DNA from: an uncultured Thermodesulfobacteriota bacterium
Lineage (GTDB): Bacteria > Desulfobacterota > DSWW01
Assembly: GCA_964479535.1 (NCBI GenBank)
Contig: CAYZMM010000003.1
Span: 193,467 to 257,466 of the forward strand
Length of the DNA stretch: 64,000 bases
Reading direction: 5' to 3'
Shown: in pieces, positions 4,433 to 52,332 of the stretch
How the letters are laid out: each line of letters begins with the position of its first letter
Numbering within the stretch: the first letter of the stretch is position 1
Notes under the pieces: generated by a model
What the model saw: only the letters and a program-made list of their open reading frames with translations
What the model was told of the DNA's origin: nothing
Database searches by the model: none
Position numbers and translations under genes: made by a program

Positions 4433-4834
4433 CTTCTCACTCCTTTCCCGCCGTCTCGGACGCTGCCGCCCCTCGGCGTCATGGCAGTTTCGCTTCGAGT
4501 TCGATCTTCACGCCCGCCAGGGCCTTCGAAACCGGACAGGACTCCTTGGCGGTGCGAGCCTGTCATCATCAGCCATATGAGCAGCAATATGGATGCCAAG
4601 TGAGATGCGGCCTCTCACGGCCGTTTGAAGCACCGTCTTGCAGGGCCACCCTTCGGATCGGAAGGCCCCTATGCAAGGTTTGCACAGTTTGGTTCGCATC
4701 TGTGTGCGAATGGTGCACAACCTCCTCTGTGAAAAGCCGCCCGACTGCGGGTTCTCGATTCCTCCCGGGAGCCGTGAACCCGGCTCCGGGAATCTAACGT
4801 GAAAAGCACCATCAACCAGACAGGGGAGAATCTC

Positions 4835-5326
4835 ATGAAACTCTTGGTGAGGGGGGTGTTGGCTCTTCTCGCGGGGCTGATGCTCCTGAACGGCTGTCAC
4901 AAGACCGTACGGACGGACCTCGAAACTCTGCGGGAGAACCCGGACAAGTTCCAGGGCAAGGAAGTGGTGATCGTGACCGAAATCGAGGACGTCAAGAGGA
5001 ACCCGCAACCCTACCTGCAGAAGGAGGTGCAGCTTCAGGGGCAGGTGGAATACATGGGCTTCCGGGAGCACTTTCGGTGGAACTTCCTTTTGAAGGATGC
5101 CGAGGGAAGGGCCCTTCGCTGCTACGAACGGGAGTATGCCTACAGGGTTTCGAGCCGGGTGGAACTCACGGTACGGGAAGCGGAGAAGGAGGGTGAGCCG
5201 TTGACCGTGGTCGGGTCGCTGGAGAACGGCAACGAGCTGGAACTCGACTGGATCGAGTACCGTGGAGACCGGATCGACACCGACTTCGTGCCCCACCGGG
5301 AACTCCACCGTTTCTGGATCTTCTGA
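4835..5326 (+). CDS. lipoprotein (lipobox LLNGC), unknown function
   Basis: ORF track starts at GTG 4799. ATG 4835 with a GGGGAG RBS gives the classic MKLLVRGVLALLAGLMLLNGC signal/lipobox. Confidence 0.6.
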   Translation: MKLLVRGVLALLAGLMLLNGCHKTVRTDLETLRENPDKFQGKEVVIVTEIEDVKRNPQPYLQKEVQLQGQVEYMGFREHFRWNFLLKDAEGRALRCYEREYAYRVSSRVELTVREAEKEGEPLTVVGSLENGNELELDWIEYRGDRIDTDFVPHRELHRFWIF

Positions 5327-5330
5327 AGAA

Positions 5331-5368
5331 GAGGGGACGTTGTTTAATTGATTAAACAACGTCCCCTC
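5331..5368. promoter_or_regulatory. perfect 38-bp palindrome (18-bp arms, AT-rich core TTGTTTAATTGATTAAACAA) between lipoprotein gene and opu operon
   Basis: gaggggacgttgtttaat-tg-attaaacaacgtcccctc read directly. No U-tract on either strand. Confidence 0.5.
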
Positions 5369-5432
5369 GATCTGGACAGTGTGCTGCATCTCCAGTATTC
5401 TGCAGCCGCAAAGCACCACGGAGGCCCTTCCC

Positions 5433-6212
5433 ATGCTCCACCTCGAGGGTGTGTCCAAATCCTACGACGGCGGGCACACCCATGCGGTCCGGCGAATCGA
5501 CCTGGAGGTCGAAGAAGGCGAACTGCTCGTCCTGCTGGGCGAGTCGGGCTGCGGCAAGACCACCACCCTGAAGATGATCAACCGGCTCATCGAGCCGACC
5601 GCCGGAACCATCCGGGTCCGGGACGAGGACACGCGTGACGTGGATCCCGTTACCCTCAGGCGAAAGATCGGGTACGTGTTCCAGGGGATCGGGCTGTTCC
5701 CCCACTTCACTGTGGGGGAGAACATCGCCGTGGTTCCGAACCTGCTGGGCTGGGAGGACGCGGAGGTGGGCCAGCGGGTGGACGAGCTGCTCGAGCTGGT
5801 GGGGCTGGAGGCGGGGGACTTCCGCGACCGCCGGCCCACCGAGCTCTCCGGCGGGCAGCAGCAGCGCATCGGTCTGGCCCGCGCGCTGGCCGCCCGGCCG
5901 AAGATCATGCTCATGGACGAACCCTTCGGGGCCCTGGACCCGCTCACACGCGACCGGCTCCAGGACGAGTTCACGGACATTCACCGGAGCCTGGGACTCA
6001 CCACCGTGATGGTGACCCACGACATGACCGAGGCACTCCTGCTCGCCGACCGGATCGCCGTGATGAACGAGGGCCGGATCCTGCGCGTGGATACGCCCCG
6101 GGAGCTCCTGAACGATCCCCAGGACGATTACATCGGAGACCTCATGGACATGCCGAGGCGTCAGGCGGACCGGCTGGAGGAGCTCATGCACGAGGCGGAA
6201 GAGAGCCGATGA
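5433..6212 (+). CDS. osmoprotectant (glycine betaine/choline) ABC transporter ATP-binding protein, OpuCA/OpuBA family
   Basis: Walker A GESGCGKTT, signature LSGGQQQRIGLARAL, Walker B IMLMDEPFGALD. ATG 5433 after a GGAGG RBS. Confidence 0.85.
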   Translation: MLHLEGVSKSYDGGHTHAVRRIDLEVEEGELLVLLGESGCGKTTTLKMINRLIEPTAGTIRVRDEDTRDVDPVTLRRKIGYVFQGIGLFPHFTVGENIAVVPNLLGWEDAEVGQRVDELLELVGLEAGDFRDRRPTELSGGQQQRIGLARALAARPKIMLMDEPFGALDPLTRDRLQDEFTDIHRSLGLTTVMVTHDMTEALLLADRIAVMNEGRILRVDTPRELLNDPQDDYIGDLMDMPRRQADRLEELMHEAEESR

Positions 6213-7813: not shown

Positions 7814-7833
7814 TCCCCGAAAGGAAGACAGAC

Positions 7834-10671: not shown

Positions 10672-10703
10672 CAGTGCAGGAAACGTTGCACGACCCCAAG
10701 GAG

Positions 10704-10720
10704 TGTGCCGATCATGCACA
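10704..10720. promoter_or_regulatory. TGTGC-N7-GCACA palindromic site ~200 nt upstream of narG
   Basis: tgtgccgatcatgcaca read directly. Member of the recurring motif family. Confidence 0.5.
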
Positions 10721-10916
10721 GCTGCCCCGCTCCTTGGGGGTTGTGTACCGATCCTTCACGGTCCGGGTGACCCTCTCGCAGCCACCGCCTCGGCCGCTGC
10801 TGTCCTGAATCACACCCGGTTCGAGCCGTCCCGGACGCCTGGGGAGGAATGAACCCCTGGCATGGCCCTTGCTGTGGAGGGCGTGGGAACAAAGCCCGCA
10901 ACCTCCCGGAGGCGCC

Positions 10917-17242: not shown

Positions 17243-18564
17243 CGTCTCCGAAGGAAGACGCCGCAACGGTGGGGACGAAAGGAACCCCGGGGCAGGGATT
17301 GACCGGGGCAACCCTCGGATTCTTCTTCGGGTTTGCGTCGGTCGCCCTCTTCGGGCCCACGGCGGAGAAGCTCCGGCAGGCCATGGACCTCTCGGCCCTC
17401 CAGGTCGGGCTCCTGGTCGCCACCCCCTCCCTGACCGGCTCCCTGCTGCGAATCCCCTTTTCCGCATGGGTCGACACCACCGGGGGCCGCAAGCCTTTCC
17501 TCGTGCTTCTCTTCCTGTCGGGCCTGGGCATGGTGGGACTCTACTCGGTCGTGGCCTTTCTCTACCCGGACCGGCTCGATGCTTCCTACTACCCGGCGAT
17601 CCTCGCCCTGGGCGCCCTGTGCGGATGCGGAATCGCCACCTTCTCCGTGGGGATCACACAGGTCGCCTACTGGTTTCCGCCGAAACGGCACGGCACGGCC
17701 CTCGGAACCTATGCGGGGTTCGGAAACCTCGCCCCGGGTCTCTTCTCCTTTCTGCTCCCCGCGGCCCTGGCGGCCTGGGGACTCGCCCATGCATACCTGG
17801 GCTGGCTCGGCTTCCTCTTGCTGGGCACGTTGCTCTACGCCCTGCTCGGACGGAACGCCTGGTACTTCCAGCTGCGCCGCGGCGGCGTGGACCCGGAGGC
17901 GGCCCGCACCCGGGCGAAGAAGCTGGGCCAGGAGGTGTTCCCCTCCGAAAGGGCCGTGCAGGGGCTTGTCGCGTCGGCAGGAGTCTGGGAAACCTGGGCA
18001 TTGGTGGCGCTGTATTTCACGACCTTCGGCGGCTTCCTGGCGCTGACGGCCTGGCTGCCCACCTACTGGAACGCCTACCTGGGCTGCGGCATGGGAGCGG
18101 CCGGCTCCCTGACGGGGGTCTTCTCCCTGCTCGCTTCTCTCATCCGGGTGCTGGGCGGGGCCTGGTCCGACCGGTACGGAGGCGAGAAGACTGCGGCCCT
18201 CTCCCTGCTCGCGACGCTGCTCGGCGCCCTCCTCATGACCTTCGCCGGCACCCCGGCTCTGGCGGTCCTCGGTACGCTGCTCGTCGGCACCGGCATGGGC
18301 GTGAACAACGCCGCGGTCTTCAAGATGGTTCCTCAGTACGTGCGCAAGGCCGTGGGAGGGGCCTCGGGCTGGGTGGGCGGAGTCGGTGCCTTCGGTGGAT
18401 TCTGCCTGCCCCCGGTCATGGCCTTTTTTGTGGAGCGAATGGGCAGGATCGGGTACGCTAGAGGCTTCATCGTACTGGCGGCCCTCGCCGCCGGCAGCCT
18501 GGCACTGGTCTTCCTCCTGAAGAGGAAGGGGCGGCGGGAACCGGTCCTCGTGTACACCCGATGA
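17239..18564 (+). CDS. narK: MFS nitrate/nitrite transporter
   Basis: 12-TM MFS, glycine-rich NarK-type motifs. ATGA overlap with narI. Confidence 0.8.
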   Translation: MTSPKEDAATVGTKGTPGQGLTGATLGFFFGFASVALFGPTAEKLRQAMDLSALQVGLLVATPSLTGSLLRIPFSAWVDTTGGRKPFLVLLFLSGLGMVGLYSVVAFLYPDRLDASYYPAILALGALCGCGIATFSVGITQVAYWFPPKRHGTALGTYAGFGNLAPGLFSFLLPAALAAWGLAHAYLGWLGFLLLGTLLYALLGRNAWYFQLRRGGVDPEAARTRAKKLGQEVFPSERAVQGLVASAGVWETWALVALYFTTFGGFLALTAWLPTYWNAYLGCGMGAAGSLTGVFSLLASLIRVLGGAWSDRYGGEKTAALSLLATLLGALLMTFAGTPALAVLGTLLVGTGMGVNNAAVFKMVPQYVRKAVGGASGWVGGVGAFGGFCLPPVMAFFVERMGRIGYARGFIVLAALAAGSLALVFLLKRKGRREPVLVYTR

Positions 18565-21053: not shown

Positions 21054-21393
21054 GGGTGATTCCCTTCCTTTCTGATTTCCGCATTCGGATTCTCTGTCTG
21101 CGTGCGCTGCTCTCGACCCTTCCTACATTGCAGAGGCTCGCAAAAGGCATGCCACGCCTGCGACGTGCAGGGTGCGCGGCAGGGCGCGCGGGCAAGCACG
21201 GAGTGTGCAGAAATGGTACAGCCCCGCTTCCCTCTGTGCCGATCCTTCACAGAACTCCGCCCCTCGGATCCCGCTGCCGGGGCCCCCGATGAGAAGCCCG
21301 TGTTCGTGGCCTGGCATAGGTCTTGCTGCCTCCACAGACTTGCCGCATGCGCAGGCAGGAGAACACATCGGAAAGGAGGGCTTGAAGTCGGAC

Positions 21394-22167: not shown

Positions 22168-23306
22168 ATCCTTTCCGCCTTTCGTTTCGAACGGCCCTGC
22201 TGCTCCCGGTCCTGCTGGCAGCGGCTGCAGCCGGGTGCTCCCGCGAGGAGGGAACCTCCGAAGGCCCGGAGGGGCCGGCCGCGCCTGTGGAGACAGCCAG
22301 CGTGTCCCGGCAGGACCTGGAGGAGACCGTCCACGCCATCGGCACCCTCGAGGCCCTCGAGAACGTGATGGTCCGGCCGGAGGCAGCGGGCTACGTGGAC
22401 GCGGTTCATTTCGTGGAGGGCGACCCTGTTTCCAGGGGCCGGCTTCTGTTCACCATCGACAGCACGAAGATCGGCCTGCGGCTCCAGGCGAGGAAGGCCC
22501 TTCTCGAGGAGGCGAGGCTCCAGCTGGCAAGGGCGGAGCGCGGCTATGAGCGTCGGCAGGACCTGGTCGGAAAGCACCTCGTCTCCAAGGAAGCCCTGGA
22601 CCAGGCGAGGACCGAGTTCGAAACCGCCCGGGCGAGGGTGACCCGAATCGAGGCGGAAATCGAAGAGCTTCGCGACGCCTTCGAGGACACCCGGGTGAAG
22701 GCGCCCATCACCGGCGTGGTCGGCGAGCGGAGGGTCGACCCGGGAGACTTCGTTCACGTGGGGGACGACCTGGTGCCCCTGGTGAACACGGAGAAGATGA
22801 AGATCTCCTTCACCGTGCCGGAACGCTTCACGGGGAGGATCCAGGCCGGCCAGAATCTCCGGGTCTACTCCCCGGCCTTCCCGGACCGCCCCTTCAAAGG
22901 ATCCATTTACTTCGTGAGCCCCCAGATCCAGGAGGAGACGCGCAGCCTCCGGGTCAAAGGGTACGTGGAGAATCCGGAGGGGCTGCTGCGGCCCGGCGGG
23001 TTCGTCACCGCGGAGGTTGCCGTGGGGCTTCGAAAGGGGGCCCTGGTGATCCCGGAGGAGGCGCTCGTTCCGACCCGCGGCGGCTACATGCTCTTCGTGG
23101 TGGAGGACTCCCGGGCCAGGGGCCGTGAGGTGAAGACCGGCCTGCGAAAGCCGGGCATCGTCGAGATCCCCGGGGGGGTCCGCGCCGGAGAGACGGTGAT
23201 CCGGAGCGGGCACATTTCGGTCTTCGAGGGGGCCCGCATCCGGGTGGTGGAGCCGGCGGCCAAACAGGAGAGGGACGCTCCGGAAACCGAGCAGGAACGA
23301 AGATGA
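22164..23306 (+). CDS. RND efflux periplasmic adaptor (membrane fusion protein)
   Basis: Lipoprotein-like signal ending AAAAGC. Coiled-coil and beta-barrel MFP domains. ATGA overlap with the EEP gene. Confidence 0.85.
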   Translation: MNPFRLSFRTALLLPVLLAAAAAGCSREEGTSEGPEGPAAPVETASVSRQDLEETVHAIGTLEALENVMVRPEAAGYVDAVHFVEGDPVSRGRLLFTIDSTKIGLRLQARKALLEEARLQLARAERGYERRQDLVGKHLVSKEALDQARTEFETARARVTRIEAEIEELRDAFEDTRVKAPITGVVGERRVDPGDFVHVGDDLVPLVNTEKMKISFTVPERFTGRIQAGQNLRVYSPAFPDRPFKGSIYFVSPQIQEETRSLRVKGYVENPEGLLRPGGFVTAEVAVGLRKGALVIPEEALVPTRGGYMLFVVEDSRARGREVKTGLRKPGIVEIPGGVRAGETVIRSGHISVFEGARIRVVEPAAKQERDAPETEQERR

Positions 23307-24536
23307 TCTGGAACTTCTGTATCGGAAGGCCGGTCCTGACGGTGGTGATCTTCTTCGTCATCGCCATCTTCGGGATCTTCGGCTACCGGCAGCTTCCCGT
23401 GCGGGAATTCCCGGACGTGGAGTTCCCGGTGGTCAATGTGAGCGTGGTGCTGCCCGGCGCCGACCCGGAGGTGATCGAGACCGAGGTGGTGGAACCCCTC
23501 GAGGAGGAGCTGAACACCATCGAGGGGATCGAGGAGATCCAGTCCACCAGCCGGGAGGAAGTGGGCTCGGTCACGGTGGAGTTCGAACTGGACCGGGACA
23601 TCGACATCGCCGCGCAGGACGTGCGGGACCGGGTGAGCCGGGCCCGGCCGGAGATGGCCGACGACATCGAGGAGCCGATCATCCGGAAGATCGACCCGGA
23701 CGCACGGGCCGTCATGTGGGTGGCGGTCATGGGGAACGAGCGCTGGGACATGGTGCGGCTCAACGATTACGCGGAAAACGTCATGAAGGAACGCCTCGAG
23801 ACGATTCGCGGCGTGGGGCAGGTCCAGATCGGCGGGGAGCGGCGCTACGCGGTCCGGGTCCGCATCGACCCCCGGAAGCTGGCGGGCTACCGGCTCACGG
23901 TCCAGGACGTGGTCGACACGATCCGCCGCGAGAACGTGGACATCCCGTCCGGCCGCATCGAGAGCCGCATGCGGGAGTTCCTGGTCAAGACGGAGGGCCA
24001 GTTCTCCTCGGCCGCGCCCTTCAACGACCTGATCGTGGCCTACCGGTCCGGCTCTCCCGTGAGGATCTCCGACGTGGGCGAGGCGGTGGACGGCGTGGAG
24101 AACGAACGCACCGTCGCGCGGTTCGTGGGCAGGCCCTCCGTGGGGCTCGGCATCGTCAAGCAGTCGGACGCGAACATGGTCGAACTCGTGCAGGAAGTCC
24201 GGCAGACCCTGAAGGAGATTGCGGAGAACTTTCCCCCGGGTCCCCGACCCGGAAAATAAGCCCTTCCTGCTCCGGCGGACCGAGCCGGCCCTCGCCGGCC
24301 TGGAGAGGGCCTACCGTTTCGTTCTGAACAAGGCCCTCCGGTGGCGCTGGGCCACGGTCGCGATCGCGATCGCCGCGTTTGCCGCGGGCCTCTTTCTGAT
24401 TCAGTTTCTGGAAACGGAATTCACCCCGAGCGTGGACCGGGGGGAGTTCGTGGTGCGCTTCGAGGCGGTGGAGGGCGCCTCCCTGGAGGCGACCGACCGG
24501 TATGCGAGGACTTCCATCGCCCCGGCGAGATCGTAG
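23303..24536 (+). pseudogene. RND efflux permease (AcrB-like) remnant: internal ~170-aa deletion plus 3' truncation
   Basis: 23303..24259 matches AcrB aa ~1-335. A frame change near 24235 continues at AcrB ~505-590 (24219..24536). The ORF then ends in a fusion with the antisense TolC remnant. Confidence 0.7.
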
Positions 24537-25126
24537 TAGGCGGTCTCGATTTGTCCACCGATCTCCTGAGCGAAGCGCGTGTAGGCGTGCACCGCCTGCT
24601 TTGTCTGGTTCTCCGTGATCCGGAGGGCGGCGGTGTTGATCGGGACGCCGAAGTCACGCAACAGGGGCTGGGTGAGGTCGAGCATGAGAACGCTTCTGTA
24701 TTGCGGTCGCAGCGCATCCACCCTCGAGTTGTTCGTGGATCGGTTTGATTCGAAGGAAATGCCCGATTCGAGACCGAGGCGAAACCGCTTACGAAGGGCC
24801 GACGTACCGCCCACCTCCTGAAACTCCTCCACGTTGTCCTGGGCGAATGCGGATGCGGTCGGCGTCTCCAGGGCCTGGAAGGAAAAGGAGGCCTCCAGTC
24901 TCGGGTCGAAGGCCGCTGCTTCAACCTGTACGTTCTCCTCTTCCTTCGAAACGTTCAACTCCTGGATCTGCACGTCCAGGTTGTTCTCCATGCCCTCTAC
25001 GAGTGCGGTCCGTAGGGGCAGCAGGATTCCTTCTTCTTCCCCTTCGGGTGCCGCGGCCGGTCCCCCTTCCGTCAGAAGGCCGAGGGCGAGCACCCATGCC
25101 GCCGTCAGCAGTAGCCGTTTCCACAT
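24510..25126 (-). pseudogene. TolC/OprM-like outer-membrane efflux protein, N-terminal half only
   Basis: MWKRLLLTAAWVLALG signal, ...LPLRTALVEGMENNLDVQIQELNV... TolC repeat 1. It terminates where it meets the RND remnant. Confidence 0.6.
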
Positions 25127-25151
25127 CCCACACCTCCCCGCCCTGCTTCCG

Positions 25152-27751: not shown

Positions 27752-28177
27752 TTCCCGGTCTCCTTTTCCGCCTTACGGACGGATTCGAGGGCGAGGGTTC
27801 CGTTCGACACGTACAAGGTTCCCTTGAGCACGAACCTCCGGGATGTCGCGTCGTCTCCCATCAGGCGCTGCGCCCCGCTCTCCTTTCCGAGTAGAAGGAG
27901 GCGCCGCCTGCCCAAGTCGTTCAGGATGTTCCACGCGCTGGTCGTTCCCGGATGAACCGCCGGGTCGACCCTGCGAAGCTCTTCGATGGCAAAAAGGGTT
28001 TCCTCCCCCTCGTACTCCAGGGTGTAGGCACCCCCCCGTGGTCTGTTGGAAAACGACGGTACCGGTGAGCTCCACCAGTACCGAAGACTGTGCTCGCGCC
28101 GAGTCCACGGACGCACACACGGCAATGAAGGCCGGGATGGCGACGACCGCTCCAACGAGCCAAACACTTTGCTTCAT
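27748..28177 (-). CDS. secreted hypothetical protein interrupted by frameshift at a homopolymer (C7 on + strand, 28031-28037)
   Basis: N-terminal part MKQSVWLVGAVVAIPAFIAVCAS...QQTTGG (frame of ORF 27773..28294). C-terminal part AYTLEYEGEE...KETGK (ORF 27748..28167). The junction is the G7/C7 run. Confidence 0.45.
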
Positions 28178-28399
28178 TTCTCCGTATCCTTCCGTATCCT
28201 TTTTACACGCATTCAAGGATGAGCAGCTTCTCGCCCCGGCGGCTGCCCGCCGTCGCTGCCCGGCGAGAAGTGCAAGCAGTATGCCACATCCCAATCAACG
28301 GAAACCTGAAGAACTCTTGTGCAAGGCGGCAAGGCCGGACCAGCGGGCGGGACCCTTCTGTACCGGAGGGGCACAAGCTGGCCACCGGCGGGCGAAGCC

Positions 28400-28416
28400 T
28401 GTGCCGAATGTGCACA
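28400..28416. promoter_or_regulatory. TGTGC-N7-GCACA site in divergent promoter region
   Basis: tgtgccgaatgtgcaca read directly. Confidence 0.5.
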
Positions 28417-28940: not shown

Positions 28941-28965
28941 TGAGGCGACGGACACCCGGGCCCTC

Positions 28966-31116
<2,151 letters not shown>

Positions 31117-31297
31117 TTAGGGCACATGCGGCCGGCTGTGCGAAAAGGTTTCGCCCGGAGAAGAACGCAGCGAACCGTCCGGAAACAAGGTCCTTGACGG
31201 GGTCCTTCCCTGTCGGAGCGGCGGTGGCAGGAAGATTGCAGCCTTGAGGAGGCATTGTGCGGCAGACCCCTGTGGACTACGAACGGAGGAGAAAGAG

Positions 31298-32379: not shown

Positions 32380-32765
32380 CTAACTTTCCGGTTCGGCGCG
32401 GAGCCGTGCCACGGCCCTCTCGGTGGCCTCCACCACGGTGAAGCGATAGCCCGAATCGACCACGTACTCCCCTTCCTTCGGGATACGGCGCAGGTGTTCG
32501 ATGAGCATGCCTCCCACGGTGCGCACCCGGTCCCCCGGCAGGTTGACGCCCAGGACGTCGTTCACTTCCGAGAGGGGCAGCCGCGCGTCGAGAAGATAGA
32601 CGTCCTCTTCGATCGTTTCGATGGACCGCTTTCTCCTGAAAGGTTGCTCTTCGAAGCGATAGACCACCTTCACCTCACCGACCACCACTTCCAGGGCGTC
32701 TTCCAGGGTCAACATGCCCACGGCGGAGCCGTATTCGTCGACCACGACCGCCGCCTGATCCGGAG
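32380..32765 (-). pseudogene. C-terminal remnant of a CorC/HlyC-family (DUF21-CBS-CorC_HlyC) transporter-associated protein
   Basis: ...VVVDEYGSAVGMLTLEDALEVVVGEV... followed by a CorC_HlyC domain. Upstream N-terminal part is absent, and its 5' end abuts the ACS fragment. Confidence 0.55.
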
Positions 32766-33695
32766 AAGACCGCCCAGGCGATCGGCGATGCGGCGGAAAA
32801 GCTCGGCAAGCCGGTGCTCGCATGCTTCATGGGCGAGGCTAACACCAAGGCCGGCGTCCGGAAGCTGACGGAAAGGAACGTGCCGAACTACGTCTCCCCG
32901 GAGCGTGCGGTCGCGGCTCTCAGGAAGATGTTCGATCAGCACCGTTGGCAGAAGGCCGCAGTGCCCGACGTAGAGGAGATGCCCGCCGACAAGGACCGCG
33001 TCGGCGGGGTCTTCCGCAGGGTCCGATCCGAAGGGCGCGTTCAGATGGGCGACACCGAGGCGAGGGAGGTGCTGGAGGCCTACGGAATCCCGCTCCCTCC
33101 TTCACGCCTTTGCCAGAACGCGACGGAGGCCGCTCGTTTCGCCGAGGAGATCGGCTACCCCGTGGTGATGAAGATCGCCTCCCCGGACATCCTGCACAAG
33201 ACGGACATAGGGGGCGTACGCATGAACCTGCAGAGCGGAAGCGACGTGGAAGACGCCTTCGACCTGCTCACCCTCCGGGCCCGGCGATACATGGAGGACG
33301 CCGAGGTCCGGGGCTGCCTCGTGCAGCGGCAGGTGAAGCAGGGCAAGGAGGTCATCATCGGCATGAACCGGGATCCTCAGTTCGGTCCTCTCGTCATGTT
33401 CGGGCTCGGCGGGATCTACGTGGAGGTCCTGAAGGACGTGGCGTTCCGCATCGCCCCGTACGCAAGAGAGGAGGCGGAGAGTCTCGTGCGGGAGATCCGC
33501 TCGTTCAACCTCCTGAAGGGGACCAGGGGAGAGGCCGGCTCGGACATTGCAGCGGTCGTCGACACCCTGCTCAAGGTCTCTCAGCTCGTGCAGGACTTTC
33601 CGGAAATCGTGGAGCTGGACATCAATCCATTGACTGTGTTCGAAGAGGAACAGGGGGTCGCGGCGATCGACGGGCGGCTCGTCCTGGATTCGTAG
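32763..33695 (+). pseudogene. C-terminal portion (tail of ligase-CoA domain + ATP-grasp beta domain) of an ADP-forming acetyl-CoA synthetase
   Basis: ...EKTAQAIGDAAEKLGKPVLACFMG... then EAREVLEAYGIPLP...GYPVVMKIASPDILHKTDIGGV...DINPLTVFEE.... The CoA-binding N-terminal half is absent. A GTG at 32814 could still express a beta-like product. Confidence 0.6.
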
Positions 33696-33740: not shown

Positions 33741-34821
33741 ATGGCCACGAAACTGTACGTGAGTTCCACGCAGGTCTCTTCCGGCAAGACGGCCCTGTGT
33801 GCCGGGCTGATGGGACGATTTCGTCGAGACGGGCTGCGGGCGGGCTACATGAAGCCGGTGAGCACGCAGACACGCATCTCACCGGAGCAGGGGATAGACG
33901 AAGACACGCGGTTCATGAAAGAAGCCTTCGACCTCTCCGAATCGTTGGAGGAGATGGCACCGGTCACCCTCACCGACAAGAAGCTTGCGGCCCTCCTCAC
34001 CGGCCGGAGCGAGGATTTCCGCGACCGGGTCCGCACCGCCCTCGGGTCGGTCGGCAGAGACAAGGAAGTGGTGGTGATCGAGGGAGGAGGCAGCCTGCGC
34101 GAGGGGTGGATCATCGACCTTGCGCCCCCCCCAGACCGCGAAGCCGCTCGAAACGCGAACCCTCGAAATCGTACCTTACAAGAACGATCTGCAGGTGGTG
34201 GACGATCTGATCACGGCCCGGATCCGGCTCGAGGACAGGCTCCTGGGAGCGGTGGTCAATTCCGTACCGAAGCAGCGAATGGGCTTTCTGGGCGACAAGG
34301 TACGACCGTACGTAGAGGAGAGGGACGTACCTGTTTTCGCCGTCCTTCCCCGGGAGCGGCTCCTGCTTTCGGTCAGCGTGACGGAGCTGGCGAAGGGCCT
34401 CGGCGGAAGGGTGCTCTGCTGCGAGAAGGGCATGGAGGAACTGGTCGAAAACGTGCTCGTGGGAGCCATGAGCGCGGACACCGCTCTGATCTACTTTCGA
34501 CGGAAGACGAACAAAGCACTCGTGACCGGAGGAGACCGCACCGACATCCAGCTCGCCGCCCTGGAAACCTCGACCCGTTGCCTGATTCTCACGGGGAACA
34601 GCCACCCGGACCTTCATGTCATGATGAAAGCGGAGGACTTGAACGTCCCCATCATCCTCACGCCCCACGATACCATGACCACCGTGGGTATCATGGAGCC
34701 GTATTTCGGTGCGTCCCGTTTTCACCAGGCCGGCAAGATGCGCCGTCTCGAGAAACTCTTCGAGAAGCACATGGACTTCGACAGGCTCTACGGCGCACTG
34801 GGGCTGTCCCCCGGAACCTGA
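33741..34821 (+). CDS. stand-alone Pta N-terminal-like protein (P-loop + DRTGG domain), frameshifted at a C8 run (34125-34132)
   Basis: MATKLYVSSTQVSSGKTALCAGL... then after the C8 run ...GGDRTDIQLAALETSTRCLILTGN.... No PTA_PTB catalytic domain. Confidence 0.55.
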
Positions 34822-34854
34822 CGCTCTCCCTGCAGGAGGGCCGCCGCGGCCAGG

Positions 34855-35046
34855 CTACTGCCCCGTCTCCTCCTTGAAGCTCTCGATGGCCGAGAGGGCC
34901 AGGTAGGTCCGGTCGTTCTTGAAGTGCCCTTTGACGACCAGGTAACCGTCCTCGACCTTCTCGACGGCCCCCAGATACGAGTCCACACCGGAGTGGGTGT
35001 AAATCCTCAGCGTCTTGCCCACGAAGCCCTTCATCAGCTCTTTCAT
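34855..35046 (-). CDS. small hypothetical protein (63 aa), or frameshifted C-terminus of the UPF0182 remnant
   Basis: Clean ORF MKELMKGFVGKTLRIYTHSGVDSYLGAVEKVEDGYLVVKGHFKNDRTYLALSAIESFKEETGQ with protein-like composition. Confidence 0.3.
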   Translation of the reverse strand: MKELMKGFVGKTLRIYTHSGVDSYLGAVEKVEDGYLVVKGHFKNDRTYLALSAIESFKEETGQ

Positions 35047-35059
35047 GTCCTGCCTGCTC

Positions 35060-36375
35060 CGACAGGCCCTCCAGGGCCGTCTGCAGTGCTTCGAGGGACC
35101 GGGAGGCCTCCTGAAAACGCTTCTCTCCCAGATGGCGCAGGTAGTTCTCGAAGGCCTCGTCGAAGGACTGTCCGTAGCTGAGCGTGTCCCCGTGCATGAC
35201 CGCCACCAGCCTCAGCTCCGGGTAGGCCGCCGTTTCCGCCTGGAGATAGATGGGCTCCACGTAGAGCAGTGTCTCCCCGATCGGAATGGCGAGCACGTTG
35301 CCTCGAATGACATTCGACCCCCTCTGATCCCAGAGGGTCAGCTGACCGGACAGAAAGCGGTCCTGGTCGATCTTCGTCTCCGCCTGCTGGGGCCCGAGGA
35401 CGCGCTTCTCCTTCGGGAACTTGTAGGCGAGGACGCGGCCGTACTGGCCCGGGTCGCACATGCCGGCGATCCAGCCGATCATGACCTGCCGGTTCTTCGG
35501 CGTGAAGGGCATCATCAGGACGAACTCCGGCTCGTCCGTGTCCGGCAGATCCCAGATCACGTAGTACGGTTCCACCGGCTGCACCGACTGGTAGTACTTC
35601 TCCGTCGCCCGGATCCAAAGGTCCTCCTGATTGTAGAAGACCGCCGGATCGGTCATGTGGTACTTCGCATAGGCCAGCCCCTGGATCAGCAGCATGTTGG
35701 CCGGGTATCGCACGTGCGCCTGCAGGTCGGCGGGCATCTCGGCCTTGTCACGGAACAGGTCCGGGAAGATCTTTCTCCAGACCCGTATGATCGGGTCCTC
35801 TTCATCGTAAACGTAAAGTTCGACCGTTCCGTTGTAGGCGTCGATCACCGCTTTCGCCGCATTTCGGATGTAATTGACCGTACCGAACCCCGAAAACCGT
35901 GCGGGCATCGCAAGCCCCCTCCGCTGTCGCCTCTGGGTCGCCTTGTAAGGCAGCGTCTGCGCTGTAGAGAACGGCTCGCTGTAGGGGTAGGGTTCAGGAA
36001 CTTCAGGATCGTCTCCCAGTTTCCGAGCCCCCAGAATCCTCCGATCACGCCTCCGGCGGCCACGGCGTAGCCTCTTGCGCGCCGCTTCCGCGCGTCCAGG
36101 GGAATCGTGAGGGTGGTAACCCAAAGAACGCCGAAGAGGGCTCCGGCGGTGGCGCAGGTGGCCTCCGCCCCGAGAACTTTCCAGAAACGCTCCGCGTACC
36201 CGAGGGAGGCGAACCACAAGACCTCGCCCCACACACTCAAGGCGGAAAAGAGCAGAAGGACCGCCGCTCCGGCGAGGATTCCGGCTGAAACGTAGAGGTT
36301 TTTTCCTCTTCTCAAGCCGGTCACTGCGAGAAGACCGGCCACGAACAACAGCACGACGAGAACGGCCAAGGACAT
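35060..36375 (-). pseudogene. UPF0182-family membrane protein with large internal deletion (N-terminal TM block + C-terminal ~300 aa)
   Basis: 36375 -> ~35975 gives MSLAVLVVLLF...GNWETILKFLNPTPT. The frame then changes into ...NYIRNAAKAVIDAYNGTVELYVYDE...FVLMMPFTPKNRQVMIGWIAGM...LLYVEPIYLQAE..., typical of the UPF0182 C-terminus. Family members are ~900-1000 aa. Confidence 0.5.
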
Positions 36376-36395
36376 ACTTCGGCTCCTTCCCCGGG

Positions 36396-36740
36396 CTAAC
36401 CTTTCTTCCCCCGGACGGCCTTCTTCCGCTTGCCGCTCTTCCTCAGCTTCTCGATCATCTCCTCCACCTCATTCTCGCCCTCCGCGTAGTAGCCTTCCTC
36501 CTCCGAATCGAGCTCCTTGAGAAGACGCCAGAACTCACCCACATGTTCCCGCTCTTCGTTCGCCACATCCACGAGCACCTCCCGGGCCAGGGGGTGATCC
36601 GTGGACTCCGCCGTCTGCACGTAAAGCTGAATCGCTTCGAATTCGGCGGCAATCATGAAGCGGATCGCTCGGATCAGTTCTTCCTGGGTGAGCTTTCGGT
36701 CGCTCTTCCTAACGACGAAGGGGGAGCTGAACTCTGGCAT
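36396..36740 (-). CDS. ferritin-like / rubrerythrin-like diiron domain protein
   Basis: 114 aa with E...ExxH-type pattern (EFEAIQLYVQ...EEREHVGEFW). Basic C-terminal tail. Confidence 0.55.
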   Translation of the reverse strand: MPEFSSPFVVRKSDRKLTQEELIRAIRFMIAAEFEAIQLYVQTAESTDHPLAREVLVDVANEEREHVGEFWRLLKELDSEEEGYYAEGENEVEEMIEKLRKSGKRKKAVRGKKG

Positions 36741-36901
36741 GTCGATTCTCCTCGATACGGTTTGCGTTTGTGTGGTATGAACAGCAAAAGCAGTGCCAAG
36801 GTCTGCAGTCGAGAGGACTCACCGAAATGCGCGTCCGGGGCCTGAGCCCGCGGTGCCCCGTGTCCCGTCCGTGCACACCAGGGCCCCTGGGAAAGGCGCC
36901 T

Positions 36902-36918
36902 TGTGCCGAACCTGCACA
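36902..36918. promoter_or_regulatory. TGTGC-N7-GCACA site (extended TTGTGC...GCACAA) in divergent promoter region
   Basis: ttgtgccgaacctgcacaa read directly. Confidence 0.5.
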
Positions 36919-37084
36919 ACTCGCTAGCATGCACGGGCCGGCCGGTCCAACGATACAGGGCTGGATGCGGACCGCCTCAACCCTGCCTGCCTGGCGGATG
37001 CTGGCACAAGCCTTGCTGCTTGTCGGGTCGAAAACCACCGCATCCAAGGGATGGAAGGACCGAACCCTGAAAAAGGAGCCGAGC

Positions 37085-38647
37085 ATGAGTACTGAGCACA
37101 CTCTGGCAAGTGTGGACGAGCTGAAAGACGGGGAAATGAAGGAAATCAAGGTCAGCGAGGACTTGACCATCCTCCTGGTCCGGATCGACCGTGAATTCCG
37201 CGCCTTTGGCGGGACCTGCCCGCATCACGGTGCTTCTCTGGCCGAAGGCGTTCTTCAGGGGAATCACATCCGCTGCCCCTGGCACCATGCCGTCTTCGAC
37301 GCGAAGACCGGTGCGGTCACGGAGGTTCCCTCCCTCGACTCGATCCCCAGGTTCGAGGTCCGAATCGACGGGGACAAGGTGGTCGTCATCCTTCCCGACG
37401 ACCCTCCCAGGGCGTGCACCCCGGAGATGGCCCGACCCGACTCCGGAAGGGACGATCGAACCTTCGTCATCCTCGGCACGGGCGCCGCCGGAATCACGGC
37501 AGCCGAGACCCTCCGGAGGGAGGGGTTCCAGGGAAAGGTCCTCATGCTCACCCGGGACGCCCACATGCCCTACGACCGAACGGACCTGAGCAAGCCCTAT
37601 CTGCGGAAACCCGACGCCCCGAAGCCCTTTCTGCGGCCGGAGGGATTCTACGAGAAGAACGGTATCGAGATCCTGACGAACCACGAGGTTACGCGCGTGC
37701 ACTCGAAGACCAGGACCCTCTCCCTCTGGAACGGCACGGAGTTGTCCTACGACCAGATCCTCCTCGCCACCGGGGCGGTGCCGAGGCGACTGGGGGTGCC
37801 AGGGGAGGGCTTGAAGAACGTTCTCGTGCTCCGGGATCTCGACGACTGCGAGGCGCTTCGTGCCGTGGCACAGGAGAAGGGCCGCGCTGTGGTGGTGGGT
37901 GCGAGCTTCATCGCCATGGAGGTGTGTGCCGCCCTGGTCGAACGGGGCCTGTCGGTCACGGTGGTGGCTCCGGAATCGGTCCCTTACGAAACCACCCTCG
38001 GCCCGGAGATCGGGCGGATGTACCGGAAAGCCCACGAAGAACGCGGAGTCGTCTTCCAGCTCGGAAACAAGGTGGACCGCTTCGAGGGGGACGGGAAGCT
38101 CTCCCGGGTGCTTCTGGAAGGCGGCGAGGGGATCGAGGCCGATCTCGCCGTGGTAGGCGTCGGCGTCGATCCCGTAACCGGTTATCTCGAGGGAGCGGGT
38201 CCTTCCGGGGGCGCGGGCCTGGAGGTAGACGGCCGACAGCTCGTGACGGAGGGCGTGTACGCGGCCGGGGACATCGCCAGGTTTCCGGACTGGCGCACCA
38301 AAGAGCCGATCCGCATCGAGCACTGGCGGGTGGCACAGCAGCAGGGTCAGGTGGCCGCCCGGAACATGGTCGGCCGCCCGAGCACGTTCCAGGGAGCGCC
38401 CTTCTTCTGGACGAACCAGTATTTCGTGATTACCTCCTATGTGGGTCATGCCGCCGAGTGGGAGGAGGTCGTCTTCGAAGGAGACCCGGCGGAACAGCGA
38501 TTCGTGGCCTTCTATGTGCGGGGCGGAAGGGTTCTGGCCGCGGCCGGGTGTGCGGAGGAGCGCAAGATGTGCCGGCTGTCCGAGTTGCTGGGGGCTCCCG
38601 AAGCACCGAAGCTGTCCGGGATCCAGGACGAACTCCGCAAATCCTAG
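37085..38647 (+). CDS. Rieske [2Fe-2S] domain fused to FAD/NAD(P)H pyridine-nucleotide-disulfide oxidoreductase (AIF/ferredoxin-reductase-like)
   Basis: CPHHG...CPWHH Rieske motif. GTGAAG and GxGxxG dinucleotide folds. AAGGAG RBS. Confidence 0.8.
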   Translation: MSTEHTLASVDELKDGEMKEIKVSEDLTILLVRIDREFRAFGGTCPHHGASLAEGVLQGNHIRCPWHHAVFDAKTGAVTEVPSLDSIPRFEVRIDGDKVVVILPDDPPRACTPEMARPDSGRDDRTFVILGTGAAGITAAETLRREGFQGKVLMLTRDAHMPYDRTDLSKPYLRKPDAPKPFLRPEGFYEKNGIEILTNHEVTRVHSKTRTLSLWNGTELSYDQILLATGAVPRRLGVPGEGLKNVLVLRDLDDCEALRAVAQEKGRAVVVGASFIAMEVCAALVERGLSVTVVAPESVPYETTLGPEIGRMYRKAHEERGVVFQLGNKVDRFEGDGKLSRVLLEGGEGIEADLAVVGVGVDPVTGYLEGAGPSGGAGLEVDGRQLVTEGVYAAGDIARFPDWRTKEPIRIEHWRVAQQQGQVAARNMVGRPSTFQGAPFFWTNQYFVITSYVGHAAEWEEVVFEGDPAEQRFVAFYVRGGRVLAAAGCAEERKMCRLSELLGAPEAPKLSGIQDELRKS

Positions 38648-38661
38648 AGTGCAGGTGCACC

Positions 38662-38862
38662 TCACTCCCAGAATCGCTTGCCTCTCCGGATGCGCAGGAC
38701 GGCCACCACCAGCAGGCCTGTGAAGGGGATCGCCGAAATAATGAAGAGCGCCAGGGCTCCGGTGCCGCGTCCCCCAAGGAAGAGCAGAAGCTGGACCAAA
38801 CAGACAGCCCCGCAAAAGAGGATGCCGACGCCGAGGATGAACCAGGTGAGCGATTCTTTCAT
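38662..38862 (-). CDS. small two-TM membrane protein (66 aa)
   Basis: MKESLTWFILGVGILFCGAVCLVQLLLFLGGRGTGALALFIISAIPFTGLLVVAVLRIRRGKRFWE with an AGGAA RBS. Inside a longer ORF-track frame. Confidence 0.4.
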   Translation of the reverse strand: MKESLTWFILGVGILFCGAVCLVQLLLFLGGRGTGALALFIISAIPFTGLLVVAVLRIRRGKRFWE

Positions 38863-38989
38863 TCTTCGTTCCTGTTGTAAATGCAAGCGTCCGGATCTGT
38901 CCCAGTGGAGGAGCAACAAGTATGCCAACCCTGGAACCGGTCTCGAGGGCCGATTCAGTGCCGAATGGTGAGAGGACCCGGGAAGAAGA

Positions 38990-39006
38990 TGTGCGGACTC
39001 TGCACA
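38990..39006. promoter_or_regulatory. TGTGC-N7-GCACA site (first of two upstream of 39174)
   Basis: tgtgcggactctgcaca read directly. Confidence 0.5.
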
Positions 39007-39029
39007 ATTCCCGCTCCCTGCTCCACGAT

Positions 39030-39046
39030 TGTGCCCTTTCTGCACA
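39030..39046. promoter_or_regulatory. TGTGC-N7-GCACA site (second of two upstream of 39174)
   Basis: tgtgccctttctgcaca read directly. Confidence 0.5.
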
Positions 39047-39173
39047 GCGCTGCATGGGGGCACAGATGTGGGCTGCCCGGCTGTGCAACGGTTTCCGGTG
39101 ATGTCGAGCGCGGGTGGCACTGCAATTGCTCGTTGCATTCCGTGAAGCGTAAGGCGGGAAGGAGTCCCGAGCC

Positions 39174-39542
39174 ATGCGAAACGAGCAAAGGATCTCCCTG
39201 CTGGTTCTTGGATCGGCAAGAAACAAGGCGTTCGCACGGATACTGAGGGAATCCCGGTTCGAACCGACCTTCCTCACGTCCATGGAAGAGGTTCTCTACG
39301 CGCTTCGCAGCACGCAGGCCTCCGCGGTCCTCGTGGACCGGGACGGAAAGAGCGCGGACGACCTGGAACTGGTGCTCAATATCCGGGACCTGGACGAGCG
39401 GATCCCCATCATCCTGATCGGTTCCCCTGCAGAGGGCCGGACAGAAGAGCTCCTCCGGAGACAGCCGGCCACCATTCTGGTCCACAAGGCTGCGGGAGAC
39501 ACTTCCCTGCGGCAGGACCTGAGACCCTTCCTGAACGGCTGA
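39174..39542 (+). CDS. stand-alone receiver-like (CheY-fold) domain protein, atypical
   Basis: 122 aa. Alternating beta/alpha pattern with ...VLVDRDG... acidic pocket. No output domain. AAGGAG RBS. Confidence 0.45.
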   Translation: MRNEQRISLLVLGSARNKAFARILRESRFEPTFLTSMEEVLYALRSTQASAVLVDRDGKSADDLELVLNIRDLDERIPIILIGSPAEGRTEELLRRQPATILVHKAAGDTSLRQDLRPFLNG

Positions 39543-42509: not shown

Positions 42510-42726
42510 GGCGTTGCCCGCCCGGATCCCTCCGCGCGAGGGACCCCTGTACCAAATGTGCACACAAACCGCCCCGAAGGGGACGGGCACCGCACGATGT
42601 TTCCACCCTGCAGCCGCTGTAGGGATGTTTCACCCCCCCTCTCAAAGCAGGAAACCCGTAGGATGAGCTTTGCGGGACAGGTAGAGACGGAGCCGGGACC
42701 TACCCGCTCCCGACAGGTGGATCACC

Positions 42727-42742
42727 TGGCATGCTTGTTGCT
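42727..42742 (+). promoter_or_regulatory. sigma-54 (-24/-12) promoter TGGCAT-N5-TTGC upstream of the LolA-like gene
   Basis: ctGGcatgcttgttGCt with exact 10-nt spacing between GG and GC. It sits ~50 nt before ATG 42791 and overlaps a GCTTTGC-N6-GCAAAGC palindrome (42740..42759). Confidence 0.55.
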
Positions 42743-50575: not shown

Positions 50576-50682
50576 TCCGGTACACCCCTCTCTTCCGATC
50601 CGTAGACGAACTGATATTCGCCCTCCTCGACGAATACGTCCAGGCACCTGTGCACTTCCTGTCCGCACCCGTCCGGTTTCAT
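50572..50682 (-). CDS. small ORF (36 aa) translationally coupled to the ECF sigma gene, possible truncated anti-sigma-like peptide
   Basis: AAGGAG RBS. MKPDGCGQEVHRCLDVFVEEGEYQFVYGSEERGVPE. Its TGA overlaps the sigma ATG. Confidence 0.3.
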   Translation of the reverse strand: MKPDGCGQEVHRCLDVFVEEGEYQFVYGSEERGVPE

Positions 50683-50701
50683 ACGCTCCTTTCCCTTCCT
50701 T

Positions 50702-51295
50702 TCAGGTGTGTTCATCCTCGGACGGCCCCTTGCTGGGGGTACGCTCGAGAATCCTCACGGTGCTTGCCTGGGGCCCCTCCTCGCCCATGATCTCGGAGAA
50801 AGCTACACCGGCCCCCGCCTCCAGCTCGTCGAAGTCGTGATGCAGCACGCTGTTCCGGTGGAAATAGACCTGCCGCCCGTCGACCGTTCTGAGGAAGCCG
50901 CAGTCCTTTTCAGGCAAGAGCCGTTCGATGACTGCAGCGGTCTGCTGTTCCTCGTGGGCCTTCACGTCTCCCCGCTGCTTTTCCGTAATGCCCTGCAACT
51001 GGCGCTGCATCGCCCGAAAGGCCTGTCGAACCACGGAGGCCAGTTCCTCGTGCATCCCCCCTTCACCCGCCTCTCTCTTGGCCACGAGATCGTGTCCCGG
51101 AGGGACCCGCACGTTGACCCGCACGCGATAAGGGCTGCCCGTCCGCTGGTGCTTCTGAGGCCGCTCGATGCTCACCCGGCAGCTGACCATATGCGAGCAG
51201 ATCCTTTGCAGCTTCTCGGATTCCTTCCGGACCAGCGACTCCAAATCCTCCGTCTTTGCCACGTTCGAGCAACTCAACTCCAACGGTACGCGCAT
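50702..51295 (-). CDS. ribosome hibernation/sigma-54 modulation protein (HPF/YfiA N-domain) fused to a C-terminal cold-shock-like domain
   Basis: N-domain ...VPLELSCSNVAKTEDLESLVRKESEKL..RVNVRV.. matches HPF. C-terminal KDCGFLRTVDGRQVYFHRNSVL..FDELEAGAGVAFSEIMGEEGPQASTVRIL aligns with the CspA fold (KGFGFI/VFVHFSAI/GPAAGNV). GGGAGGAG RBS. Confidence 0.65.
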   Translation of the reverse strand: MRVPLELSCSNVAKTEDLESLVRKESEKLQRICSHMVSCRVSIERPQKHQRTGSPYRVRVNVRVPPGHDLVAKREAGEGGMHEELASVVRQAFRAMQRQLQGITEKQRGDVKAHEEQQTAAVIERLLPEKDCGFLRTVDGRQVYFHRNSVLHHDFDELEAGAGVAFSEIMGEEGPQASTVRILERTPSKGPSEDEHT

Positions 51296-51358
51296 TCTCG
51301 GTCTCCTCCCGTCTTTCCGGCATCCTTCCCCGACGTTCACACGCCGCTCTTCCCCGCC

Positions 51359-51793
51359 TCACCCCGCTGCGTCCTTCACGTCGAGCACCTTGACATCGAA
51401 ATGAAGGGTCTCGCCGGCCAGGGGGTGGTTCAGATCCAGCACGACGGTGTCGTCCTTCAGCTCTGCAACGCGTGCGACGAAGACCCCACCCTGCTCGTCC
51501 TGGCCCTCGAGCTGCGCATCCACCCGGCGCGACTCTTTCGGAACGACGCTCTTGTTCACTTCCTGAAAGGCCTCTTCGGACCGCTCGCCGAAGCCTTCCT
51601 CCGGCTCGACGACGAAGGACTTGTCTTCCCCGGCGTTCATCCCCTCCAGTTCACGTTCCACCCCGGGGACAATCTGCAGGGTGCCCTGCACATAGGTGTA
51701 CGGCTCCTTGCCGACATTGCTGGACACCTCGGTGCCGTCGTCGAGTCGGAGCCGGTACTCGATGGAGACCTGCTTGCCCTTTTCGATCATCAT
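51359..51793 (-). CDS. FKBP-type peptidyl-prolyl cis-trans isomerase (SlyD-like)
   Basis: FKBP core with inserted flap domain. Confidence 0.85.
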   Translation of the reverse strand: MMIEKGKQVSIEYRLRLDDGTEVSSNVGKEPYTYVQGTLQIVPGVERELEGMNAGEDKSFVVEPEEGFGERSEEAFQEVNKSVVPKESRRVDAQLEGQDEQGGVFVARVAELKDDTVVLDLNHPLAGETLHFDVKVLDVKDAAG

Positions 51794-52332
51794 AATTCCT
51801 CCCCTTTCCTACACTTGAGCTATTGCTGTTTGAAGGAACAGCCTCCTTTCCAGGGGCAGCAAGAGATGTGCCAGGTCCTCCGCAGCGGGCCTCTCAGAGG
51901 GTCGGCCACGCCTGGGGGGCAGGGAATCGGATCAGGCGGAGACGCAGAGCGAGGGGTTCTGTACCGCATATGCACACACACCACACCCCCACACGCTTTC
52001 TGTACCTTATGAACACACCCCTCCCCCAGGGTTTGAGAAAGGGCAGCCCTCGATTCAAAGACCCGCATGTTCGCAGGCATTTCGGCCGGGCATCCTCCTG
52101 GTTGATCTTCACAGATACGTGCTTCGAAGGGGCTTTCTTGTTCTTGGGTACGGTGATCTAAGGCGGATACAGGATACTCCTCGTCAAAGAGCCGCCCTGA
52201 GAGGGCGACGGGCTCAGAACCGTGTCGGACCGATCTTCGGACCGATCTTGGGTTGTATCGTACGGGATGCACACTGTCCTCCTTTCAGCCCGTTTCGTGC
52301 TGTCGAGAAATCTTCCGTCCTGCGCTCGCTTC

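Follow-up and report, generated by a model that had tools for sequence, protein, structure and literature searches.

A 17-bp palindrome paired with sigma-54 promoters in an uncultured Desulfobacterota bacterium is a probable NtrC-family enhancer

Which regulator reads a 17-bp palindrome, TGTGC-N7-GCACA, that recurs between the genes of an uncultured Thermodesulfobacteriota bacterium, and what kind of control element is it? The question was raised by a sequence-only reading of a 64,000-nucleotide stretch of DNA from this organism (positions 193,467 to 257,466 of the 358,278-bp contig CAYZMM010000003.1, assembly GCA_964479535.1; the whole stretch is hereafter the window), which took the palindrome for the footprint of a global regulator, either a CRP/FNR-superfamily variant or another dimeric helix-turn-helix (HTH) protein. 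We report that all copies are paired with sigma-54 promoters, an arrangement that points to an enhancer read by an enhancer-binding protein (EBP) of the NtrC family.

The palindrome and its sigma-54 promoters

An exact search of the window returned seven copies of TGTGC-N7-GCACA, starting at 4703, 10704, 28400, 31110, 36902, 38990 and 39030, against a mean of 0.02 in dinucleotide shuffles, none of 100 of which reached seven. The seven copies and the strong non-randomness claimed for them are therefore borne out, as are six of the seven coordinates; the copy between ligA and slp, which had been placed at 31090-31106, lies at 31110-31126 and is flanked by half-sites at about 31064 and 31137. The four variants that had been listed are likewise present, with one (21204, 42548, 51960) or two (52001) mismatches to the exact arms. 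That list was five copies short, as degenerate copies adjoining listed sites were recovered by a mismatch search (4670, 21235, 28359 and 36861) and by reading of the region (10744). In total, 16 sites (seven exact and nine degenerate) occupy nine intergenic regions, in agreement with the original estimate of at least nine promoter regions. The extended half TGTGCCGA is indeed common to four sites (10704, 28400, 36902 and 21235), the last of which was missing from the sequence-only reading. A symmetric weight matrix of the sites gives the 17-bp consensus TGTRC(C/A)nAWTn(G/T)GYACA, in which TGT and ACA are separated by 11 bases (N11) in 16/16 sites and C occupies the fifth position in 89% of half-sites, whereas no flanking position beyond the 17-mer carries more than 0.27 bit. 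When the window is scanned with this position weight matrix (PWM), all 16 sites score at least 12.8 and the best other 17-mer scores 10.0; as the matrix was trained on the same 16 sites, the scan is circular for those and informative for the rest of the window only. All 16 sites are intergenic, as claimed, in a window that is ∼10% non-coding, two apparent overlaps with open reading frames (ORFs) being due to over-extended ORF calls whose real starts are at 21391 and 37085. The motif is thus real, non-random and promoter-associated.

The promoters in question are of the -24/-12 type. A search for TGGCAY-N5-TTGCW with at most one mismatch gave 18 matches in the window, where 2.4 are expected, and 13 of these fall in the nine palindrome regions, each of which has at least one. 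Under a self-trained PWM these 13 promoters score at least 17.6, and the same scan found no strong sigma-54 promoter in the window without a palindrome. The nearest palindrome is 49-162 bp from each of the 13 promoters, and every promoter is directed away from it, towards a gene start; in four regions a divergent pair of promoters flanks a central site or site pair. If transcription is placed about 12 nt beyond the TTGC element, then relative to these predicted starts the palindromes are centred at -84 to -197. Two palindromes are found in seven of the nine regions, with spacings of 31, 33, 40, 40, 41, 41 and 41 bp that correspond to about three or four helical turns, placing both sites on roughly the same helical face. 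The window has five instances of the composite arrangement of a promoter, 55-85 bp, a site, 12-26 bp and a second site; shuffles have none. Upstream of two weaker sigma-54-like elements, CGGCATGCCGTTTGCT at 166-181(-) and TGGCACTGGTCTTCCT at 18500-18515(+), there is no palindrome; chance may account for these matches, or they may be internal or orphan promoters.

The sequence-only reading had proposed conservation in relatives as a check, and we compared orthologous upstream regions across four related metagenomic lineages. The relatives were L014, L042 and L051 (JGI samples 3300034152 and 3300035633), L046-L048, and L043, whose fusions of a ribosome hibernation-promoting factor (HPF) domain with a cold-shock domain (HPF-CSD) are 80%, 77% and 74% identical, respectively, to that of the window. 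In the three diverged regions, conservation is concentrated mainly in the palindromes and the -24/-12 elements. In the intergenic region between the genes for a universal stress protein (Usp) and an endonuclease/exonuclease/phosphatase (EEP) protein, which aligns with L014 at 73% identity, what stands out as clearly conserved is the pair of palindromes and the pair of -24/-12 elements; in the regions upstream of fkbp/hpf (five compared, 61% mean identity) and of the LolA-like gene (three compared, 62% identity), the sites and the promoter are kept while most of the rest has diverged. Upstream of narG both sites and the promoter are also kept in L014, at 93% identity, a value too high to be informative. 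A scan for palindrome–promoter pairs found them in L014, L042, L043, L046, L047 and L048; the Rieske/FAD oxidoreductase ortholog of L046 has the same promoter sequence as that at 37002(+) together with a pair of palindromes, and in L043 a palindrome–promoter pair adjoins norB. Such pairs were absent from L045 (HPF-CSD 63%), L049 (PrkA 81%) and L050 (PrkA 79%), and from ∼12 kb of housekeeping genes in L051. Together, the distant relatives and the housekeeping stretch indicate that conservation of the system is limited to a narrow clade and that it clusters in an island of stress genes. The closest matches of PrkA are in metagenome-assembled genomes (MAGs) labelled ‘Deltaproteobacteria bacterium’ (∼78%); in a GTDB scan the Rieske/FAD protein matched best, at ∼50% identity, in Planctomycetaceae and Phycisphaerae MAGs, which lack both the motif and sigma-54 promoters. 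A strong palindrome, TGTACCGTTTGTGCACA, at L042 2927-2943 and L051 8193-8209, only ∼80 bp upstream of a 155-aa gene, may depart from the enhancer geometry, as no canonical -24/-12 element lies between the two, only TGGCTG-N5-GTAC.

The enhancer reading, its activator and the rival explanations

The pairing with sigma-54, the tandem phasing and the conserved blocks are together the signature of an upstream activating sequence (UAS) of the NtrC family. We therefore consider it highly probable, on the arrangement of the DNA, that the palindrome is the enhancer of a set of sigma-54 promoters and is read by one NtrC-family EBP. As in other EBP enhancers, phased dyads, used divergently in places and kept in orthologs, lie at -84 to -197 of promoters with a -24/-12 element, and both the PWM and 27 further loci described below place the sites in the TGT-N11-ACA class of EBP motifs. 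The computed basis of this assignment is motif enrichment, exclusive pairing with -24/-12 elements, geometry, ortholog conservation and analogous architecture beside EBP genes, whereas binding of the EBP, its oligomerisation and DNA looping are extrapolated from established sigma-54 biology, in which promoters of this class obligatorily need an EBP, and the activating signal and the physiological role are likewise inferred. In the mechanism so envisaged, dimers of one NtrC-family EBP, an AAA+ protein with a GAFTGA motif and a C-terminal Fis-type HTH, would occupy the 17-bp dyads and, on an activating signal, would nucleate a hexamer; a DNA loop would bring this hexamer to the sigma-54 holoenzyme at TGGCAY-N5-TTGCW, where its ATP hydrolysis would remodel the closed complex into an open complex. 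One central site or site pair would serve two divergent promoters in four regions. The earlier notion of a regulator site shared by many promoters is thus upheld, with 16 sites and 13 sigma-54 promoters in nine regions, and of the two regulator types then suggested the dimeric HTH factor suits an NtrC-family EBP, which would bind as a dimer through its Fis-type HTH.

The same architecture occurs in other organisms. A metagenome scan for a sigma-54 promoter with two TGTNC-N7-GNACA sites gave 27 loci, from organisms of 36-70% G+C, with TGTCC, TGTTC, TGTAC or TGTGC arms. Ten of the 27 have an ORF of GAFTGA type, usually directly beside the sites, and all six such ORFs that were checked carry Sigma54_activat and a Fis-type HTH_8 domain. 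In Desulfovibrio vulgaris, EBP motif groups have TGT/ACA half-sites 9, 11 or 12 bp apart (Kazakov et al. 2015, PMC4641369). The scan loci beside EBP genes and this D. vulgaris motif class together indicate that the 17-bp TGT-N11-ACA tandem dyad is a generic NtrC-family enhancer format, widespread across very different bacteria, within which the TGTGC variant of the window is one specificity. Neither the exact motif string nor the sample accessions turned up anything relevant in the literature. The best TGTGC-type match of the scan, L022, was set aside as an iteron-like array in a different context. On this 1.2-kb contig, positions 985-1090 hold at least five close iteron-like copies of TGTGCCGAAA(A/G)AGCACA. 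The palindrome is that of the window consensus. Located at the 3′ end of an ORF, downstream of a separate XRE-type HTH gene, and followed by TGGCACGATTCTTGC, the array could serve as the origin of a mobile element or as an operator array rather than as an EBP enhancer.

Several points weigh against the assignment to an NtrC-family EBP. A six-frame search for GAFTGA and Walker motifs found no EBP gene in the 64-kb window, and binding is thus tied to no protein. The window has no rpoN gene either, and the presence of sigma-54 is presumed from the promoters alone. Some EBPs act without binding DNA, so that the palindrome could belong to another factor; the regions of 31110 and 42548 have only one good site each, and the start sites used for the geometry are predicted positions. 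Finally, just one EBP was found to be encoded close to regulon genes in a relative, and it seems to act at another palindrome. This protein, P0133 (L042/L051), a 659-aa GAF-PAS-AAA+ activator encoded ∼3 kb from prkA in the relative's island, was rejected as the cognate EBP. Its divergent OsmC/BBE operon partner has other palindromes (TCTCGTGAGAACTCACGA or TCTCGCGAGA; TCTCGTGAGA-type) and an atypical promoter, TGGCA-N6-TTGA, both in L042 and in L053, the locus of a 73% ortholog; L053 has no TGTGC palindrome–promoter pairs; and the assembly of the window, whose proteins are in the database, gives no ortholog of at least 73% among the matches. The protein belongs to a strongly conserved family of ∼645-aa GAF-PAS sigma-54 activators with roughly 60% identity across matches labelled Nitrospirota, Binatia and Acidoferrales. 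At both loci examined (L042 1135-1442 and L053 8141-8726) the activator gene is divergent from a gene for a BBE-type FAD oxidase, which OsmC precedes in L053, and the region between the divergent genes contains palindromes of the TCTCG(T/C)GAGA type together with a sigma-54-like promoter that has TTGA, not TTGC, as its -12 element.

In one rival explanation a non-EBP dimeric regulator (a repressor, an anti-activator or a CRP-like co-regulator) would bind the palindrome and modulate the sigma-54 promoters, with the EBP acting from solution or from another site. EBPs that lack a DNA-binding domain exist (FlgR, CtcC), CRP modulates some sigma-54 promoters, and the sites of the window have no EBP gene linked to them. 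However, the most diverged footprints show only palindromes and promoters as extended blocks, leaving no other evident candidate for an EBP site, and the position, tandem phasing and divergent sharing of the palindromes are typical of EBP enhancers; the adjacency of tandem 17-bp TGT-N11-ACA dyads to HTH_8-bearing EBP genes in unrelated organisms argues in the same direction, and we regard such a regulator as improbable. Still less credit can be given to a CRP/FNR-superfamily variant, or another classical activator, on ordinary sigma-70 promoters. The TGTG...CACA arms do resemble the CRP half-site, and narG is FNR-controlled in enterobacteria, yet the sequence-only reading had itself remarked that the palindrome fits neither consensus, and its 17-bp span with an N7 spacer (not 16 bp with N6) and the C at the fifth base of most half-sites confirm this. 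The sites are not centred at -41.5 or -61.5 of a -10 hexamer, their centres being 84-197 bp upstream of -24/-12 elements; all nine regions have canonical sigma-54 promoters with which every site, mostly in tandem, is paired, and no suitably placed sigma-70-type promoter was found in 36600-39300, the one region scanned. The CRP/FNR suggestion is accordingly not retained.

A rival of a different kind keeps the enhancer and multiplies its readers: several paralogous EBPs might share the motif, the 13 promoters being overlapping regulons with different signals. Position 4 varies between G and A, and the pairs fall in two spacing classes (about 31-33 and 40-41 bp); moreover, the D. vulgaris paralogs DVU0110/DVUA0057 and DVU0946/DVU0539 are documented cases of EBPs with a common motif (PMC4641369). 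Against this, the sites cluster tightly in a single PWM, without evident subclasses, and the same arm sequences are found at both spacings, so that several readers appear unlikely, if appreciably less so than the two regulators considered above. A dispersed repeat (REP/MITE), which would have overturned the regulatory reading, or a hairpin terminator was also considered, and a simple scan does flag the 38990 copy as terminator-like. Conservation nevertheless ends with the 17-mer, no repeat family of at least 24 nt covers a palindrome site, the stem is 5 bp with a 7-nt loop only, and the sites lie upstream of genes, often divergent ones, and keep their position relative to the promoter in orthologous regions. 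This explanation is effectively refuted. A single NtrC-family EBP acting from the palindromes is thus the reading that we prefer.

Promoters, genes and the surrounding island

The operons named here as lying downstream of the 13 promoters are predicted from gene order. In the leftmost region, the site TATGCAAGGTTTGCACA (4670..4686; one mismatch, PWM 15.9) is proximal to the promoter TGGCATCCATATTGCT (4583..4598, minus strand) and a site with exact arms (4703..4719) lies 33 bp from it; transcription would run toward the gene for a 56-aa Zn-ribbon protein and those for two small unknown proteins (142 and 82 aa), protein-L-isoaspartate methyltransferase (PCMT) and an 802-aa protein. The promoter TGGCATGGCCCTTGCT (10858..10873, plus strand) precedes narGHJI and the genes for an MFS transporter and a radical SAM protein; it has an exact distal site (10704..10720) and, 40 bp from that site, the degenerate site TGTACCGATCCTTCACG (10744..10760); promoter and distal site are conserved in L014, in which the degenerate site is identical. 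The sites TGTGCAGAAATGGTACA (21204..21220) and TGTGCCGATCCTTCACA (21235..21251), 31 bp apart and both conserved in L014, are flanked by the promoters TGGCATGCCTTTTGCG (21139..21154, minus), upstream of the universal stress protein gene, and TGGCATAGGTCTTGCT (21312..21327, plus), upstream of the EEP gene and then HlyD/RND efflux genes. The site TGTACCGGAGGGGCACA (28359..28375) and an exact site 41 bp away (28400..28416) accompany the promoter TGGCATACTGCTTGCA (28271..28286, minus), which faces a frameshifted gene for a secreted protein, beyond which genes for an isochorismatase and an aldo/keto reductase lie on the same strand.

The single exact site at 31110..31126 is common to the promoter TGGCACACGGGTTGCA (31030..31045, minus) of ligA, the NAD-dependent DNA ligase gene, and to a weaker promoter, TGGCAGGAAGATTGCA (31225..31240, plus), of slp, the Slp lipoprotein gene. 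Next come TGTCCCGTCCGTGCACA (36861..36877) and an exact site 41 bp from it (36902..36918), between the promoters TGGCACTGCTTTTGCT (36783..36798, minus), upstream of the gene for an EncB-family ferritin-like protein, and TGGCACAAGCCTTGCT (37002..37017, plus), upstream of the Rieske/FAD oxidoreductase gene. Two exact sites 40 bp apart (38990..39006 and 39030..39046) are flanked by TGGCATACTTGTTGCT (38912..38927, minus), upstream of a 66-aa ORF, and TGGCACTGCAATTGCT (39115..39130, plus), upstream of the gene for a 122-aa receiver-like protein and, further on, an ATP-grasp gene. A single far-upstream site (42548..42564; centre at about -197), conserved in L042 and L046, accompanies TGGCATGCTTGTTGCT (42727..42742, plus), which precedes a LolA-like protein gene and then the gene for a 481-aa sigma-70-family factor. 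In the last region, TGTACCGCATATGCACA (51960..51976) and the degenerate site TGTACCTTATGAACACA (52001..52017), 41 bp apart and both conserved in relatives, stand upstream of TGGCACATCTCTTGCT (51858..51873, minus), which faces the genes for an FKBP isomerase, HPF-CSD and an extracytoplasmic function (ECF) sigma factor.

Read from its annotations, this gene set would amount to a stationary-phase, hypoxia or dormancy-type programme, and two sigma-factor genes, those for the ECF factor and the 481-aa sigma-70-family factor, are among the targets. For an island with 13 such promoters the label of a ‘global’ regulator is plausible. The EncB-family encapsulin ferritin-like cargo protein (114 aa, 36396-36740(-)) scores 107 against an NCBIfam cutoff of 90; downstream of its gene no intact encapsulin shell gene is evident. 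The HPF (S30AE)–cold-shock-domain fusion (197 aa, 50702-51295(-)) has 1137 homologs at E≤1e-10, with labels that include Desulfobacteraceae, Syntrophales, Eisenbacteria, Zixibacteria and Spirochaetota, the architecture being widespread; in close relatives the ECF sigma factor gene follows the HPF-CSD gene, sometimes with a DUF5619 gene between them. Inside the island lies a prkA-DUF444(yeaH/yhbH)-spoVR operon (54129-58932(-)), a classical starvation- and sporulation-associated module. The region upstream of it (58933-59180) has neither a sigma-54 promoter nor a palindrome, and in the distant relative L050 a TGGTAT-N5-TTGCA element is found ahead of prkA (L050 9726).

A number of genes in the island look truncated or frameshifted (23303-24259, 24401-25159, 27748-28177, 28475-29077, 32380-32823 and 34691-36232). 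An AcrB-type pump ends after 318 of about 1040 residues, while L014 has a full 1041-aa gene; an OEP fragment is also among the decayed-looking genes, and a signal-peptide gene changes frame near 28000. A 200-aa remnant overlapping the 3′ end of ligA resembles a Lon-like protease, as judged by its N-terminal sequence without a family search, and there are a lone CorC_HlyC domain and an ORF that matches just the C-terminal part of UPF0182. This pattern suggests that the island has been rearranged or its genes are decaying, or that the MAG was misassembled. Nothing was found in the window by Rfam and tRNA scans.

The presence of 13 promoters on one enhancer type in 64 kb suggests a sigma-54 general stress or dormancy programme in this clade, which, if true, would widen the known physiological roles of sigma-54. 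More tentatively, and with considerable doubt on our part, sigma-54 and one master EBP might form a general stationary-phase or dormancy switch that stands in for RpoS or SigB, with tens to hundreds of promoters, co-ordinating hibernation, protein and DNA repair, iron storage and a switch to nitrate respiration; the EBP would then sit atop a sigma cascade because sigma-70-family and ECF sigma factor genes are among its targets. An EBP regulon of this kind would be larger, in size and role, than those described so far. What was an orphan palindrome has in any case become a testable model of sigma-54 promoters with a shared enhancer, and supplies a precise motif and 13 targets with which to find the activator.

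Relation to known control systems

The proposed enhancer would work like those of NtrC at glnAp2, NifA or DctD. At glnAp2 of enteric bacteria the NtrC enhancer has the consensus TGCACCA-N3-TGGTGCA, and the likeness extends to the 17-bp dyad, to two sites about three turns apart and roughly 100-140 bp upstream of the -24/-12 element, and to presumed dimer binding, hexamer assembly and DNA looping. The reversed order of the arms, GTGC-N7-GCAC here and GCAC-N7-GTGC in NtrC, nonetheless excludes an NtrC site; the genes, moreover, are those of stress, repair and respiration rather than nitrogen assimilation, and no NtrB/NtrC genes are nearby. The NifA UAS, TGT-N10-ACA, is likewise a TGT/ACA dyad upstream of sigma-54 promoters, yet the spacer in the window is one base longer (N11), so that the palindrome is not a NifA UAS either, and there are no nif genes. 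With CRP (TGTGA-N6-TCACA) and FNR (TTGAT-N4-ATCAA) sites the palindrome shares dyad symmetry and TGTG/CACA-like arms; it is not a site of that kind because spacing, position and promoter class differ, as does the fifth base.

In gene content the nearest parallel is the DosR/DevR dormancy regulon of Mycobacterium, a functional analogy only, which also combines Usp and ferritin-like proteins with nitrate respiration and with stabilisation or hibernation of the ribosome. DosR, the LuxR-type response regulator of that regulon, acts on sigma-70-type promoters through a 20-bp palindrome, whereas activation here would depend on sigma-54 and an EBP, and the palindrome is different. In Planctomycetia, a 2025 survey (PMC12316311) places predicted sigma-54 promoters ahead of Usp, MscS and chaperone genes. 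The element itself belongs with the TGT-N11-ACA group of D. vulgaris, which shares its half-sites, spacing and promoter consensus (tGGcacg / tTGCt) and whose EBPs carry a Fis-type HTH (PMC4641369). Unlike in that group, positions 4-6, GC[C/A], are specific to the sites of the window and no regulator gene is adjacent. Most EBP regulons of D. vulgaris consist of 1-4 operons and the largest, genome-wide, of 12 (PMC4641369), whereas 13 promoters are found here within 64 kb. The palindrome is thus a control element of a known kind, of which the scale and the gene content are unusual.

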